64,000 nt of DNA from a virus (IMGVR_UViG_3300027987_000212:1-64000), one strand, 5' to 3'. Positions 3,707 to 50,179 are shown, numbered from the stretch's first letter. The notes: generated by a model not told the origin, from the sequence alone. Numbers and translations: made by a program.

Positions 3707-4152
3707 GCATGACCCCCGAGAAAGTCATCGAAGTACTCGCTTCCCTCAAAGACACACTCCTATGCGAGCTGCTGGATGGGACACCACCAGAACAACTGGA
3801 TGCGGAGGACTACAAGAACAGCATCGAGTTCGTCTCCGAGGACAGGGCAATCCAACACTTCGCCTGGATGTGCGACGAGGCCACCAAACTAGTGCAGCAA
3901 GGTCGAATGGAAAAAGCCATGCGCTGGCTGGGATTCATCAATGGCGGCGTCTGGATGTGCGGCCTATTGACCCTGGACGAGGTGAAGCAGCTCAGCGCCC
4001 CGACACCTGTACCGACTACCACGCTTGACCAACCTGACCCAACCGGCATCCACCTCGTCGTGCACGAAGAGGTTGTACTGCCGGAACACCCCAATCTCGA
4101 AGCCATCAGTAAACTTGAGCTGACCTCAGAGATGGGCAAGAAAGATGACTAA
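3703..4152 (+). CDS. hypothetical phage protein
   Basis: 149 aa; HFAWMC...KAMRWLGFI motif resembles a recurrent phage family of unknown function. Confidence 0.75.
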   Translation: MSMTPEKVIEVLASLKDTLLCELLDGTPPEQLDAEDYKNSIEFVSEDRAIQHFAWMCDEATKLVQQGRMEKAMRWLGFINGGVWMCGLLTLDEVKQLSAPTPVPTTTLDQPDPTGIHLVVHEEVVLPEHPNLEAISKLELTSEMGKKDD

Positions 4153-4882
4153 CAGCAAGGACAAAAGGGCCGAGGGCATGCTCTACACGTCTTTCGTCGA
4201 ACGCGAGGGCGGCACTCCCGAGTATGCCTCAGCCGTGCGAGACACGCGCGCATACCTCTTCTTCAAATTGCGTAACATCGGGTTAGTCACTGGCAACTAC
4301 GAAGCGCCAAAGCTCACTGAGGCAGGTAAAGCGGTGTTCGGTAGTTGGTTGCTTCGTACTCCGCAGGACGAGTACATACCAATCCTCCCACACCTACTGA
4401 GTACTGTTCCTGAGCAAGAACACGCAGCAGCCCAACACCAAGTACTGTCCCAAGATACGAAGACTTCCCTCGTAAGCTCCACCCTTCCGCACCTGGAGGA
4501 AGAAGCCCGCGCACTCAACGCGAGCATCCCGAACACAGAGAAGTGCAGACTACTGGCTTGTGAAGAGGTGTTCGTTAACGACTTGGGGTTGAAGCGCGTA
4601 CTCGCATCGACCCAGTTCGGGGGTAACGCCTCGTGGGTAACTACGGGTAGACCCATCGAGAAGGTGAACAACGACGGAGAGACCGCTATGCTCACCTTCC
4701 CCTTCTTCTGGTTCTACTGGAGCGAGCTCACAGACAAACCGCCCTCTAGTCAACAAGTCCTGAAGCCCATCGTTGACTTCGACCCCAAGCCCAGCCAACC
4801 CCCAAGCAAGCTCAAGTTTCCCGATGAAGCACAAGAAGACCGACTGGAAGCTCAAGACGGTAGTACCTGTCGCCCACAATGA
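4145..4882 (+). CDS. hypothetical protein
   Basis: 245-aa ORF overlapping both neighbours. Confidence 0.7.
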   Translation: MTNSKDKRAEGMLYTSFVEREGGTPEYASAVRDTRAYLFFKLRNIGLVTGNYEAPKLTEAGKAVFGSWLLRTPQDEYIPILPHLLSTVPEQEHAAAQHQVLSQDTKTSLVSSTLPHLEEEARALNASIPNTEKCRLLACEEVFVNDLGLKRVLASTQFGGNASWVTTGRPIEKVNNDGETAMLTFPFFWFYWSELTDKPPSSQQVLKPIVDFDPKPSQPPSKLKFPDEAQEDRLEAQDGSTCRPQ

Positions 4883-46006: not shown

Positions 46007-46589
46007 CATGGGTGTTGAAACCCTCACTTGGGGAGCGCAGCAACACCATGCTCTCTACACGCAAATGAACACCGCGGCGGCAATCGAGCAGGAGCTCACC
46101 TCCTGGGGGTTCGAAGCCACCCCACGGCCAGTTCAAACCTACCCCAGCATCACTACGGAGGGGCTCACCAGCAGCAACACCGACCTCATCATCGAGCTCT
46201 TGGCTAGGGTCACCGCCTGGCACAACTACTCGGAGAACACCGCAACGCGGGTCAAGATAGTACTTGCCCAGCTCAAGCGGATACAGGCCAACGTAGAACG
46301 CGAGATACGAGCAGCGGCCGTTGCCGCTGCCAAACGAGACAAGCAGAAGAAGCCATCTGAGGCTACCCTCAAGGTACTGCCAGAGACCAACCCTCACTGG
46401 CAGCAACTCGACTTGGAGATACTGCAGTACGAACAACGCAAAGCACTGCTAGACTCCGCCGTCAATCGAGCCACCCGCGACTACACCATGGTCTCCCGCT
46501 CGGTAGAGCTACGCAAAATCGATATCGAAGCAGGGCGCAGAACTGGTAACGCCCCGTACGCCGGTGCAGGGATGCGGCCCCACCAATGA
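45981..46589 (+). CDS. coiled-coil protein, possibly UvsY-like recombination mediator (start ATG 45981)
   Basis: AGGAGG RBS; helical, ends MVSRSVELRK; near recA. The function is a guess. Confidence 0.5.
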   Translation: MSGLELPHSMGVETLTWGAQQHHALYTQMNTAAAIEQELTSWGFEATPRPVQTYPSITTEGLTSSNTDLIIELLARVTAWHNYSENTATRVKIVLAQLKRIQANVEREIRAAAVAAAKRDKQKKPSEATLKVLPETNPHWQQLDLEILQYEQRKALLDSAVNRATRDYTMVSRSVELRKIDIEAGRRTGNAPYAGAGMRPHQ

Positions 46590-47044
46590 GCCAGTTACAC
46601 ATGGTCTTCGAGGGCGTGCCCCCTACCACCAACCACGCCTATATCGATAAAGTAGTCCCCGCAGCAAACCAGCCAAAGGGTGGGAAGGGGAAAGGCGGCG
46701 GCAAGCGCTGGGTAGTCAAGCGAATACTAAGTCCTGAGGGGGAGGCGTACAAGCTCGGCATCTCGACGCAAGTAGCTCAGCGCTACGGAGCCCAGACAAC
46801 CTGGGTACGGAAGGATGTTCCTTACGGGCTACTCATTCAGGTCGAAATGGTCATCGAAAATTCAGGGTGGCCAAAAGATGCCGAAAGCCGGTATAAGAAG
46901 CTCGACGCCAGCAACCGCTGCAAACTGCTGGAGGATGCCCTAGCGCCGAGTTTGGGTATCGACGACAGGCAGTTCCTCACCGTGACCGTACACAAGGTGC
47001 ACTCGCTCGTAGAACGCACCCAAGTCTGGATTTGGACCCTCTAG
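46586..47044 (+). CDS. rusA: RusA-like Holliday junction resolvase
   Basis: PPTTNHAY...KLDASNRCKLLEDAL...GIDDRQF. Confidence 0.75.
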   Translation: MSQLHMVFEGVPPTTNHAYIDKVVPAANQPKGGKGKGGGKRWVVKRILSPEGEAYKLGISTQVAQRYGAQTTWVRKDVPYGLLIQVEMVIENSGWPKDAESRYKKLDASNRCKLLEDALAPSLGIDDRQFLTVTVHKVHSLVERTQVWIWTL

Positions 47045-47056
47045 TCTGGAGCTAGC

Positions 47057-47407
47057 GTGACCTTCGACGAAGCCACTCGGCTAAACCACACAGAAGCCTA
47101 CCAACTCTGCCGACACGCTGGTATCCCGTGTCTCCCCAGCGAGCCGAAGGAAGCACTCATCGAGTACCTACTAGGTTTGCGCCAACCTCTTGCTGTAACG
47201 GAGAGCAATCACCCATTCGACACCTGGCGGCACGGCCTCGCTGGCTTCGTACTGGACCACTGGGAAGTGGTTCAGGCGCAACTTCGTTGTCCTCTGCGCA
47301 GCAAAGACCCGCGTTCGTGCTTCGGTTGCCTCGACACGCGCGTAGTCGAATGCCTAGTCAAGAACCCCCGCAATGAGCACCTCATTCAACTACACAGGAA
47401 GACATGA
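47057..47407 (+). CDS. Rho-N/HeH-like N-terminus plus Cys-rich domain
   Basis: LNHTEAYQLCRHAGIP...PKEALIEYLL; CPL...CFGC...C. Confidence 0.7.
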   Translation: MTFDEATRLNHTEAYQLCRHAGIPCLPSEPKEALIEYLLGLRQPLAVTESNHPFDTWRHGLAGFVLDHWEVVQAQLRCPLRSKDPRSCFGCLDTRVVECLVKNPRNEHLIQLHRKT

Positions 47408-48387
47408 CGGACTACATCACAATCGACAACGCACCGCGCAGTAGCGAAGAGCTATTCAAGTTAGGCCGGTCTGCACGCTACCGACTAGCCTGCGCCATCC
47501 CTGGGTTCATCATCGATACCGCGGGGCAAGTCATCGCGTCGGCAGACGCCGCATACTTGCAGGCCACCGAAGAGCAGCAAACTCAAATGCTGCTCGAGGC
47601 CTTCCAAACCTACGACACTCAGCAAGGACACACGCCCGCAGGGCATCAGCAGCAAGGACACCCATCAATGAGCAACCCCCAGCAACCAGGCAACCCCCCT
47701 CCCGGCTACGGAGCTCCGCCCCCCGGCTACGCGCCTCAGCCAGGATACGGTGCTCCGCCACCTGGCTACGGCGCCCCACCCCCCGGATACGTTGCACCAC
47801 CCCCCGGGGCGCCACAACCCGGGTACGCTGCTCCACCTCCCGGCGCCCCACCAACGGCACCGCCACAGCCCGGCTACGGAGCTCCCCCTCCAGGCTACGG
47901 AGCTCCCCCTCCCGGTGCACCTCAACCAGGATACGGGGCCCCGCCGCCAAACGCCCCGCCTCCCGGGTATGCACCCCAGCCCGGATACGGCGCGCCGCCC
48001 GGCGCACCTCCCGGACCGCCCACAGCTGCCCCAGGCGCGCCCCCACCCCATGGTGCCCCGCCTCCCGGCGGCTTCGCTCCTCCGCCCCCCGGGGCCCCGC
48101 CTCCGGGAGCCCCGCCGCCTCCCATGGCTCCACCAGGACCCCCGCAGAATCACCTACCCCCTGCGCCCCCGCCACCTCCAAATGCCGGGGCCCCGATGGT
48201 TGACTTCGGCGTCTACGCGGCAGGGTCGATGAGCCTGCTCAACACCATTGGGCTGCTCGTCCTCTACGTCGCCGAACGCGTGTTGCAAACGCCCAAAGAA
48301 CAGCTCATTCCCGCCATCGAGAATGACCTGAAGAACGGGGCTCTGCAGCAACTCCTCGCGAAGAGCGCTCCGCCGGGAAACGGGTAA
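47404..48387 (+). CDS. Pro-Gly-Tyr repeat low-complexity protein (0-frame product, 327 aa)
   Basis: Globular N-terminus, about 165 aa of PPPGYGA/PQPGYGA repeats, helical C-terminus. Confidence 0.85.
   Translation: MTDYITIDNAPRSSEELFKLGRSARYRLACAIPGFIIDTAGQVIASADAAYLQATEEQQTQMLLEAFQTYDTQQGHTPAGHQQQGHPSMSNPQQPGNPPPGYGAPPPGYAPQPGYGAPPPGYGAPPPGYVAPPPGAPQPGYAAPPPGAPPTAPPQPGYGAPPPGYGAPPPGAPQPGYGAPPPNAPPPGYAPQPGYGAPPGAPPGPPTAAPGAPPPHGAPPPGGFAPPPPGAPPPGAPPPPMAPPGPPQNHLPPAPPPPPNAGAPMVDFGVYAAGSMSLLNTIGLLVLYVAERVLQTPKEQLIPAIENDLKNGALQQLLAKSAPPGNG
47690..48180 (+). repeat. coding tandem repeat (P)PPGYGA / PQPGYGA
   Basis: Recurring CCCGGCTACGGAGCTCC / CCAGGATACGG units. Confidence 0.85.
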
Positions 48388-48407
48388 GCGCACTCTGGCC
48401 AGGGTGC
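48375..48407 (+). other. candidate programmed -1 ribosomal frameshift signal
   Basis: In-phase G GGA AAC at 48375-48381, one codon before TAA; hairpin GCACUCU-GGCC-AGGGUGC 8 nt downstream. Confidence 0.6.
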
Positions 48408-48572
48408 AGATTCCCTCACCCCCACGAGTACGTGGAACTGGACAACCGAGCCCTGGAGGCGATGACGCCTCTGGGGCTTTGGCAACTGGCCGAACAACTA
48501 GGCATCGGACATCCCTCCGATACCAGCACTAGTGGACTGCTACGGCACATCAGAAGCTTCTCTGTCGACTGA
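48381..48572 (+). CDS. -1 frame extension (63 aa) of gene 47404, Rho-N/HeH-like
   Basis: Frame open from the slippery site to TGA 48570-48572: RVSALWPGCRFPHPHEYVELDNRALEAMTPLGLWQLAEQLGIGHPSDTSTSGLLRHIRSFSVD. Confidence 0.55.
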   Translation, partial: RVSALWPGCRFPHPHEYVELDNRALEAMTPLGLWQLAEQLGIGHPSDTSTSGLLRHIRSFSVD

Positions 48573-48589: not shown

Positions 48590-48991
48590 ATGCGTGCACA
48601 CGAGTTAGCTCAGCTCGAGCCCTGGCGACAAAACCTGGGGCAGTCCGAAAGCATCCTAGCTCCTGCGTGGCGCCCCGAAGTACGGGAGCTATGTATGGGC
48701 GAAGTCACTTACGAGATGTCAGAGGGGGCAAGTACTGGGTGGTGGTGTTGCAGGGTCTGCGGGTTCTGCAGCAACGCAACAACACACAGCCACCACAAGG
48801 TACAGCACCCAGAGAACTACTACCACGACAGCTACGACGCGTTCTTCGAACACCGACGACAGCAAGGCGTGGATGAGGACACTGCCAAGCGTCAGGCGCT
48901 GTTCCTCATTGGGGTAGCTCTTCGGGCAGCAACAGCAACCCCACCGAACAAACTCACCGAGTTCGTCAACCGACTCTTGTCGATGACGTGA
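48590..48991 (+). CDS. hypothetical protein with CxxC...HxxxH Zn finger
   Basis: CRVCGFC...HHKVQH. Confidence 0.75.
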   Translation: MRAHELAQLEPWRQNLGQSESILAPAWRPEVRELCMGEVTYEMSEGASTGWWCCRVCGFCSNATTHSHHKVQHPENYYHDSYDAFFEHRRQQGVDEDTAKRQALFLIGVALRAATATPPNKLTEFVNRLLSMT

Positions 48992-49028: not shown

Positions 49029-49562
49029 CTACCTGTTTACCGCCCAGACTCCCACCCCTACCAGAGCCCCCGCAGTAACCACACCCAGCCCATAGTAAAA
49101 CGCCGGTGAGTCGAAGAAGCCCGGTTCGCGCTCACGCTCTTCTGCGGCTAAACGTGCTTGCTCCGCACGAAGCAACCGCTGGTTAAGGTCACTCTCTACT
49201 TGTGCTGCACGGTAGCGCTCCGCGTTCAACACACGTAGCTGATAGTGCTGCTGTACTGCGCAAAGGTTACGCTCTCGAGCCAAGTCTGCTTGGTACCGGT
49301 AGCGCCATTGCTGCAACCAGAACCCCCAACGGATGGCAGTGTCCACGTCGAACAGGTGCCCCTCGAATGGGGCAACCGCCCCTTTCGTCAACTCGACGAT
49401 GTTGTCCTCGCCGTCGGGCAAGGTCTGCAGCGGGGGGTCGAGAACAATACTCTCGGGGGCTACCAGCTTCAACTCAGGCACCTTTTCCAACGTCGGCACC
49501 ACGGATTGAGCCAGTACCTGCGCAGGCATCAGCACGCACGCAGCGAACACCTGGTACTTCAT
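49029..49562 (-). CDS. secreted/membrane coiled-coil protein, spanin-like
   Basis: Signal peptide MKYQVFAACVLMPAQVLAQ, coiled coil and C-terminal TM segment. Confidence 0.55.
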   Translation of the reverse strand: MKYQVFAACVLMPAQVLAQSVVPTLEKVPELKLVAPESIVLDPPLQTLPDGEDNIVELTKGAVAPFEGHLFDVDTAIRWGFWLQQWRYRYQADLARERNLCAVQQHYQLRVLNAERYRAAQVESDLNQRLLRAEQARLAAEEREREPGFFDSPAFYYGLGVVTAGALVGVGVWAVNR

Positions 49563-50179
49563 CCAAACAGCTCCTCACGCAGGCGGTCCCTGATGTGCTC
49601 AGCAGCTGCACGAGGCGTCACACCAACAGCCGCCTGAGTAACTCGCTGCACAGCCTTGTGCGCATCTTGAAAACGCCGCCGGGCGTCCTCCTCCCCAAGC
49701 TTGTCCAAGTGAGTGAGGCAGCTGACGAGTACCATTGCCGTCTTCACCCTCCCCGTCGGTTCGATGCGCAGCATGGACTTCATCATGTCGAGGCTGAGTG
49801 TGGCCATACCGTCCAGCAGCTTTCGCGGGATGTGCTCTACGTACGCTGCAGTCGCCTCCTCACGGGAGTTGAAGCCGAGGAAGACCTTGTACTCGTCAAA
49901 AGTCCCATCATCCTTCTTCTGCGTCACCCAATACGCTTGCCCAGCCTTCGCATTGGGCCCAAGGAAGACGTCCAAGCCATCACCATCTCCGCCAAGTGTC
50001 TTTGGAATGAAGCCGTAGTCGTACTTGTAGACCCGCTTCCAGGGAGTACCAGACGCATCGGTACCCTCCATCACAAACCCCTTGGGGCGGTCCACACAGA
50101 TGGGGATGCCTTGGAACTCGAGGCGCTTCTTGACGGTATCTGCCGAACAAGCCTTGCCCTGGTACGTACCGGTTGCCAC
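49559..50179 (-). CDS. inorganic-pyrophosphatase-fold (InPase-like) protein
   Basis: PKG...YDYGFIPKTLGGDGDGLDVFLG...FDEYKVFLGF; C-terminal VKTA and DKLG motifs. Confidence 0.7.
   Translation of the reverse strand: MATGTYQGKACSADTVKKRLEFQGIPICVDRPKGFVMEGTDASGTPWKRVYKYDYGFIPKTLGGDGDGLDVFLGPNAKAGQAYWVTQKKDDGTFDEYKVFLGFNSREEATAAYVEHIPRKLLDGMATLSLDMMKSMLRIEPTGRVKTAMVLVSCLTHLDKLGEEDARRRFQDAHKAVQRVTQAAVGVTPRAAAEHIRDRLREELFG

Follow-up and report, generated by a model that had tools for sequence, protein, structure and literature searches.

The 3' end of a proline-rich (P-rich) gene in the replication and recombination block of a viral genome very probably carries a canonical cassette for programmed -1 ribosomal frameshifting. 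The stretch of DNA analysed here (IMGVR_UViG_3300027987_000212, positions 1-64,000; "the window") is the first 64 kb of one 185,327-bp contig with a G+C content of 58%. The P-rich gene (47404..48387) codes in its own frame for a protein of 327 aa. As judged from the sequence, a slip of some ribosomes into the -1 frame just ahead of its stop codon would give a longer protein, with a small additional domain at the C-terminus. A reading of the window from its sequence alone (the sequence-only reading) had proposed such a frameshift, and the main prediction that followed from it, namely that the slippery heptamer and the -1 open reading frame (ORF) should recur in homologues, could be checked by comparison. 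In all six lineages in which the locus was found, an in-phase G_GGA_AAN and an open -1 frame are present, and the attempt to refute the proposal thus failed.

The P-rich gene of the window ends in CCG GGA AAC GGG TAA. The heptamer G_GGA_AAC contained in this sequence has the X_XXY_YYZ phase that is expected for a tandem slip: GGA begins at 48376, and 48376 - 47404 = 972 = 3 x 324. Between 48327 and the TGA at 48570-48572, no stop interrupts the -1 frame, which provides 63 sense codons after AAC, so that the computed products have 327 aa (zero frame) and 389 aa (after the -1 shift). Downstream of the heptamer, the -1 translation reads RVSALWPGCRF...LEAMTPLGLWQLAEQLGI..., and the first canonical start codon in this frame is GTG 48432. 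The gene end, the position and phase of the heptamer, the length of the open -1 frame and the sizes of both products had all been given correctly in the sequence-only reading. Its remark that the -1 ORF fills the gap before the gene at 48590 also holds, and extends to all six lineages, where the -1 ORF ends just short of the next syntenic gene.

From this genome alone, the case that the arrangement exceeds chance can be made only partly. Of the 97 long genes, 45 have a -1 frame that stays open past the stop codon, a frequent case here because adjacent genes overlap as ATGA. Only 2 of the 97 combine an in-phase XXXYYYZ motif at most 5 codons from the stop with a -1 extension of at least 60 codons, and both of these sites are conserved in relatives. 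The G+C contents at the three codon positions of the -1 frame (0.67/0.49/0.65) match those of real genes, and a codon model trained on the 97 long ORFs, like position-specific GC, favours the -1 frame for 48432-48569. Codon usage gives the heptamer some additional weight in the comparison below: GGA is the rarest glycine codon of this genome (13.6%), AAA is the minor lysine codon (21.6%), and codons ending in G make up 32%.

Relatives of the locus were not easily found. No real match came from GenBank phages when the region, the extension and the downstream gene were searched by blastn and tblastn, and scans of IMG/VR with single proteins gave none either. An exhaustive HMMER search with the 63-aa extension retrieved a 65-aa protein, P0003, which starts with MKLWPGCELP... 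and is 52% identical to the extension over extension residues 5-50. The LWPGC segment is therefore conserved protein sequence, although it lies ahead of the first start codon in the window. Two further candidates, P0001 (with TPR repeats containing EQLGINHP) and P0002 (a repeat protein), were set aside, since their resemblance is confined to short repeated motifs. In a Sphingopyxis metagenome-assembled genome (L010), ALWPGCRFP occurs in the off-frame of an unrelated bacterial gene and is a chance match. A comparison of the extension profile with longer proteins, which is a weak search for in-frame fusions, found no such fusions. Scans with small alignments finally recovered eight syntenic loci, L001-L008: L001/L002 and L003/L004 come from metagenomes, L005 from a 184,901-bp viral contig, and L006, L007 and L008 were found in addition. 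Together with the window, these nine contigs from independent assemblies form six lineages (the window, L001/L002, L003/L004, L005, L006/L007, and L008). All of them share the same order of a gene of about 200 aa, RusA, a gene of 110-130 aa with a Cys cluster, a P/Q-rich gene, the gap ORF, and a Cys/His-rich gene of about 135 aa. Identities to the window are only 17-33% for the P-rich proteins and 23-45% for the extensions.

Despite this divergence, G_GGA_AAN is located in phase and 0-2 codons ahead of the zero-frame stop in 6/6 lineages (Table 1). The heptamer is G_GGA_AAA in the five relatives L001, L003, L005, L006 and L008, and G_GGA_AAC in the window. Ahead of the glycine, the residue differs (P, E, Q, P, E, S), but all six codons for it end in G, and the third codon positions that flank the heptamer are near saturation between the lineages. 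The -1 ORF is likewise present in every lineage; counted from the heptamer, it has 59-76 codons and stops shortly ahead of the next gene. Five of the six lineages have an (A/S)LWPG(C/S) block in it that is always upstream of the first ATG, GTG or TTG of the -1 frame. The extension of L008 lacks this motif, and there, too, the first canonical start comes only far past the heptamer. In the lineages as a set, the first such start codon is found 9-39 codons past the heptamer, at non-homologous positions. In the 12-codon block before any start, L001 and L003 differ by 7 synonymous and 2 non-synonymous codon changes (nucleotide differences of 0/2/9 by codon position), and over the whole extension, L003 and L005 differ by 12/9/21 at the three codon positions. 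By these substitution patterns, the -1 ORF is under purifying selection already upstream of any start codon. In L001, the -1 frame is closed by a TGA directly ahead of GGG, and one codon separates the heptamer from the zero-frame stop, so that the switch between the frames must occur within 13 nt, essentially the heptamer itself. Taken as a whole, the pattern is what comparison classically shows for a programmed -1 frameshift.

The events at the site would be the usual ones. Most ribosomes would read GGA AAC GGG, terminate at TAA and release the 327-aa protein. A fraction would slip back by one base while GGA is in the P site and AAC in the A site, with both tRNAs re-pairing on GGG and AAA, and would then translate the -1 frame to 48572. 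The resulting product of 389 aa would have the junction ...PPGN-RVSALWPGC.... According to the predicted folds, the short form would have one N-terminal Rho-N/SAP-like domain, a disordered Pro-rich linker and a helical C-terminal region, and the long form would carry a second Rho-N/SAP-like domain at its C-terminus. The efficiency of frameshifting would then fix the ratio between a one-headed and a two-headed form of a protein from the replication/recombination block.

The stimulators of such a shift are less clear than the site. A hairpin 8 nt past the heptamer, behind the spacer GGGTAAGC, had been part of the original proposal. It does exist in the window, but its role as a conserved stimulator is unsupported, because it coincides with the codons for ALWPGC. 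Across five lineages, there is no compensatory change, and pairing is kept only via wobble changes that are also synonymous. The hairpin loses 3 of its 7 pairs in L006 and is displaced to 38 nt from the heptamer in L001. Every lineage can form some hairpin 3-18 nt downstream, of which only that of L001 (z -3.2) stands out from shuffled sequences; the fold of the region in the window is no more stable than its shuffles (z -0.16). A Shine-Dalgarno-like element upstream of the heptamer that is consistent across the lineages was not found either. The conserved feature near the heptamer is the closeness of the zero-frame stop (0-2 codons), and this nearby stop may contribute as a stimulator. The downstream hairpin may help in this genome, without being a conserved requirement. 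As for the heptamer itself, G_GGA_AAG is highly shift-prone in Escherichia coli, and haloarchaeal viruses use G_GGA_AAC for their g-t frameshifting (PMC5009743).

Several points weigh against the frameshift and have to be set against the comparative evidence. The 389-aa product is one that we infer from the nucleotide sequence. A look-up of sequencing runs listed no RNA holder; two DNA runs hold small shares, with contigs that do not span the heptamer. No conserved downstream structure is present at the distance of a stimulator, the folds being not clearly beyond shuffles except in L001. Since E. coli shifts less efficiently on heptamers with AAC or AAA at the end than on those with AAG, and much less readily on the AAC ones (PMC5009743), shifting at the window heptamer, which ends in AAC, may be of low efficiency. 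The first 17 codons of the extension (48381-48431) are not favoured in the -1 frame by the codon model, in a sample that is small and rich in His and Pro. The six lineages share ancestry and are thus not fully independent samples. Finally, P0003 begins with M-K-LWPGC, so that an independent start of the domain may exist in one lineage or more. The Met of P0003 may either mark a lineage with its own start, or reflect the choice of a gene caller inside a ...GGG AAA ATG A... overlap.

One alternative is reinitiation after termination: ribosomes would restart on a non-canonical codon, the one in the -1 frame that overlaps with the stop, and make a separate protein of about 60 aa. Genes of this genome are usually joined by ATGA stop-start coupling, the stop precedes the whole of the conserved motif, and P0003 has its Met directly before LWPGC. 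The overlapping codon is CTG in L001 and L008 and ATA in L006, and a near-cognate start is thus available in three lineages. However, it is GTA in the window, L003 and L005, and reinitiation would need this triplet, which is not a known start codon, in three lineages. It would also leave unexplained why G_GGA_AAN is strictly conserved, together with the rare codons GGA and AAA and a preceding codon that ends in G, and GGGAAA is a poor anti-Shine-Dalgarno match that is too near the candidate restart codon. We consider reinitiation unlikely. The extension could also be an independent small gene that starts from GTG 48432 (46 aa) or ATG 48462 (36 aa), with non-coding conservation upstream. The codon model, which favours coding only from about 48432, would agree with this, and a GGAGG at 48455-48459 lies just ahead of ATG 48462. 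The sequence-only reading had noted correctly that this GGAGG is only 2 nt away from the ATG, but its argument from the spacing is weak: many long ORFs of this phage have no recognisable Shine-Dalgarno-like site, and a poor one would be no obstacle. The small gene is still less probable than reinitiation, and its start is not conserved. In the alignment, the Val of GTG 48432 corresponds to GTC in L005 and to Glu in L001, and the Met of ATG 48462 to Leu (CTA) in L003. Moreover, the block ALWPGCELPK ahead of the start varies almost exclusively at third codon positions of the -1 frame, and a start at ATG 48462 would drop the first helix of the modelled domain.

An extra base could in principle be added by the RNA polymerase at GGGAAA(A), which would place the extension in frame in some of the mRNAs and give the same fusion. 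Known sites of transcriptional slippage need about 6-9 identical bases or more. The runs at this site have only 3-4 bases, and in both genes that carry it, the motif matches a tandem-slip ribosomal site exactly in form and phase, which makes transcriptional slippage very improbable. From a single genome, one could not have excluded an indel of the assembly, or a gene broken recently, together with a -1 ORF that is open by chance. With the two-frame arrangement shared by nine contigs from independent assemblies in six lineages, and with both parts under selection, an artefact or gene decay is scarcely credible. Programmed -1 frameshifting thus stands as the preferred explanation.

The domain that the frameshift would add has been modelled from an alignment of seven sequences, which gives three short helices at a predicted local distance difference test (pLDDT) score of 84. 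In an exhaustive structural search, the top match is 1a62_A, residues 1-44 (Z 5.0, root-mean-square deviation (rmsd) 2.2, 44 aligned), with more than 10 SAP and LEM domains below it. The model has the helix-extended-helix fold, and the Z-score is modest, as expected for 40 residues. A Foldseek search against the PDB yields nothing at E below 1, with Rho, MANF/CDNF and SAP entries near the top. Sequence searches are less telling. The extension profile finds only weak IF2-N and uS4 matches in the PDB, at E 0.16 or more, and the window extension has no match in Pfam at E up to 1 and so cannot be placed in Rho_N (PF07498). The relative P0003 scores 15.9 bits against PF07498, compared with a cutoff of 24.9. 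In profile-profile comparisons that pair the extension with the P-rich protein's N-terminal domain and with the upstream gene, the motifs are in register and the scores are not significant. The designation "Rho-N-like" of the sequence-only reading therefore stands for the predicted fold, with 1a62 as the top match, and falls for membership of the Pfam family. Likeness to the Rho_N/SAP/LEM group extends from 1a62_A to the SAP domains of MANF, CDNF, Ku70, Hcc-1, SLX4 and PIAS and the LEM domains of emerin and LAP2, which follow it in the list, and to the motif L..M....L..LA..LGI in the extension. In contrast, these families have nothing equivalent to the conserved LWPGC leader, and the extension domain is not markedly basic.

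The zero-frame protein is predicted by AlphaFold to consist of an N-terminal helical domain, a long Pro/Gly/Tyr-rich disordered linker and a C-terminal helical domain, with pLDDT values of about 90 for residues 10-75, below 55 for residues 79-260, and 58-68 for residues 265-321. The best structural match of the N-terminal domain is the N-terminal subdomain of Rho, again 1a62_A (Z 6.1, rmsd 2.2, 48 aligned), and its structure neighbours in the Atlas include clusters that bear Rho_N. A Rho-N/SAP-type fold of both domains is thus a reasonable reading of the models, at modest Z-scores, and no function can be deduced from it. The idea of the sequence-only reading that frameshifting could set the ratio of mono- to bivalent forms may be called plausible, since Rho-N is the best match of the N-terminal domain as well. 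The hydrophobic stretch at about residues 265-290 was considered as a membrane anchor and rejected, as the homologues are amphipathic there; the C-terminal helical region is probably not a membrane helix. A word-indexed protein search with the C-terminal 78 residues gave no match. The linker is polymorphic in length. In the near-identical viral contigs L006 and L007, the open frames of the P-rich gene (about 3831-4600 and 3831-4657) have 256 and 275 codons, and the extension is identical between both despite the difference in the linker. In L008 (3465-4532), the upstream gene of the 116-aa type is continuous with the P-rich gene in one open frame of 355 aa; in the other lineages, the two genes overlap as ATGA or abut. 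This natural fusion suggests that the two proteins work together.

With respect to its genomic surroundings, the P-rich gene belongs to a replication/recombination block and not to a tail module. It is placed there because its neighbours on the plus strand code for an SNF2/ResIII helicase, UDG, DnaB, a DnaG-type primase, a family A polymerase, a RecA-like protein and RusA, after which the gene lies at the end of the block. The statement of the sequence-only reading that the frameshift lies outside the tail-chaperone context is in agreement with this neighbourhood. Membership of the tail assembly chaperones of the G/GT type, for which a place between the genes for the major tail protein and the tape measure is expected, is contradicted by the wrong neighbours, and neither part of the gene matches a Pfam or PHROG family. 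Only RusA of the four genes at the locus could be assigned to such a family. The TGA of the upstream gene (47057..47407) overlaps the ATG of the 327-aa gene, and the start of this upstream gene resembles the helix-extended-helix motif of the extension. Both flanking syntenic genes are rich in Cys, with CPLRSKDPRSCFGC in one case, and WWCCRVCGFC followed by His residues in the other. No tRNA genes and no paralogues were found within the 185-kb genome. A motif like CTCGTGGTAGAGT recurs just upstream of several genes on the minus strand, e.g. those ending at 81230 and 107691. Beyond the block, a 206-aa ORF on the minus strand (49559-50179) matches phrog_4272, phrog_4660 and others with E down to 9e-25. 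Its domain is embedded in very large virion or polyvalent proteins in PHROGs, and stands alone here.

Table 1. Features of the frameshift locus, 3' ends of the P-rich gene in the six lineages, and the second candidate site
Feature	Position	Strand	Remarks
RusA-like resolvase	46586..47044	+	Pfam PF05866, E 5.5e-07; phrog_140; synteny marker in all lineages
Upstream syntenic gene, 116 aa	47057..47407	+	HeH-like (helix-extended-helix) N-terminus and Cys cluster
Zero-frame P-rich gene, 327 aa	47404..48387	+	ORF list; alignment with four homologues; AlphaFold model
N-terminal helix-extended-helix-like domain, about residues 12-75	47437..47628	+	Structural match
Low-complexity PPPGYGA-type linker, predicted disordered	47638..48189	+	Length differs among lineages
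C-terminal helical region, conserved	48196..48366	+	Predicted helices 265-294, 298-310, 313-321
Candidate slippery heptamer G_GGA_AAC	48375..48381	+	In phase with zero frame
Candidate -1 frame extension, 63 codons and TGA	48381..48572	+	No canonical start before GTG 48432
Zero-frame stop TAA	48385..48387	+	One codon past heptamer (relatives 0-2 codons)
Codons for A-L-W-P-G-C motif	48390..48407	+	Same 18 nt as the 7-bp hairpin GCACUCU-GGCC-AGGGUGC
Helix-extended-helix (Rho-N/SAP/LEM-like) domain of extension, predicted	48441..48557	+	Helices at extension residues 22-27, 30-40, 50-59
Downstream syntenic gene, 133 aa, Cys/His-rich	48590..48991	+	Last gene in plus-strand block
P-rich gene 3' end, window			CCG GGA AAC GGG TAA
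P-rich gene 3' end, L001			GAG GGA AAA TCC TGA
P-rich gene 3' end, L003			CAG GGA AAA GCC GGG TAG
P-rich gene 3' end, L005			CCG GGA AAA GCC GGG TAG
P-rich gene 3' end, L006			GAG GGA AAA TAG
P-rich gene 3' end, L008			TCG GGA AAA GGC TGA
Second candidate -1 frameshift gene, 406 aa	G000:C1 118062..116842	minus	Ends CTG GGA AAT GGT TGA

A second candidate of the same type is located outside the window (region G000:C1 116471-118062; L011, L012, L013), where a gene for a protein of 406 aa, with its candidate site at 116848-116854, is followed by a -1 ORF of 125 codons. Its homologues in two related contigs end in TTG GGA AAT GGC TAA and GTG GGA AAT GGC TGA, and have an in-phase G_GGA_AAT one codon before the stop and conserved -1 ORFs of more than 140 codons. 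The codon that overlaps the stop is CTA or CTG in the relatives and is a start (TTG) only in this genome. Neither part of the gene could be assigned to a known family. The neighbourhood is non-structural, with a dNMP kinase nearby. The second site suggests that this phage group uses the same type of slippery site at least twice.

Among the known systems, the G/GT frameshift of phage lambda, on G_GGA_AAG, is the closest in mechanism. It shares the -1 slip on G_GGA_AAN near the upstream ORF's 3' end, the common N-terminal part with a C-terminal domain gained by the longer product, and the conservation across very diverged phages (PMC5009743). The present gene differs in that it follows RusA outside of a tail module, has no sequence or family link to tail chaperones, codes for a largely disordered 327-aa product, and has a heptamer ending in C or A instead of G. 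The dnaX gene for tau and gamma resembles it in being associated with replication and in making two isoforms that differ by C-terminal domains via a -1 slip; in a minority arrangement of dnaX, frameshifting yields the long form and the shift site is directly followed by the zero-frame stop, as proposed here (PMC5009743). There is no homology between the two, the heptamer of E. coli dnaX is A_AAA_AAG, and a conserved upstream Shine-Dalgarno-like element or downstream stem-loop is not evident at the P-rich gene. In 10A/10B of phages T7 and T3, and in Ig-like extensions, a low-level -1 shift likewise appends a small accessory domain to some of the molecules (PMC5009743). Those are virion proteins that acquire Ig-like or other domains, whereas the gene described here is non-structural and the added domain is predicted to be of the Rho-N/SAP type.

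The locus is best regarded as a well-supported new example of a known, canonical mechanism in an unusual gene context, which leaves the understanding of frameshifting itself unchanged. Textbook phage frameshifting concerns structural genes, namely those for tail chaperones, capsid proteins and Ig-like extensions. For tools that were trained on tail chaperones, the locus provides a clean test case outside of this group, with six diverged examples and a second site. In terms of annotation, the 202-nt "gap" would be coding, and the gene should be entered as a joined feature.

What the frameshift could be good for is more speculative. The phage group may use G_GGA_AAY/A for frameshifting in at least two non-structural genes, and frameshifting at the P-rich gene may set a fixed ratio of one-headed to two-headed molecules of a protein with a prion-like Pro/Gly/Tyr linker. 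By cross-linking nucleic acid or partner proteins, the two-headed form would then tune the material state of a replication compartment. We regard this scenario as doubtful, although if it were true, translational recoding would act as a valency dial for a scaffold protein. Independently of it, the data provide a comparatively well-supported frameshift in a replication-block gene of a phage group that is known only from metagenomes. They lead to the directly testable prediction that the P-rich gene would give rise to two isoforms, which would differ by one small domain that is, judging from the models, of a nucleic-acid-binding type.

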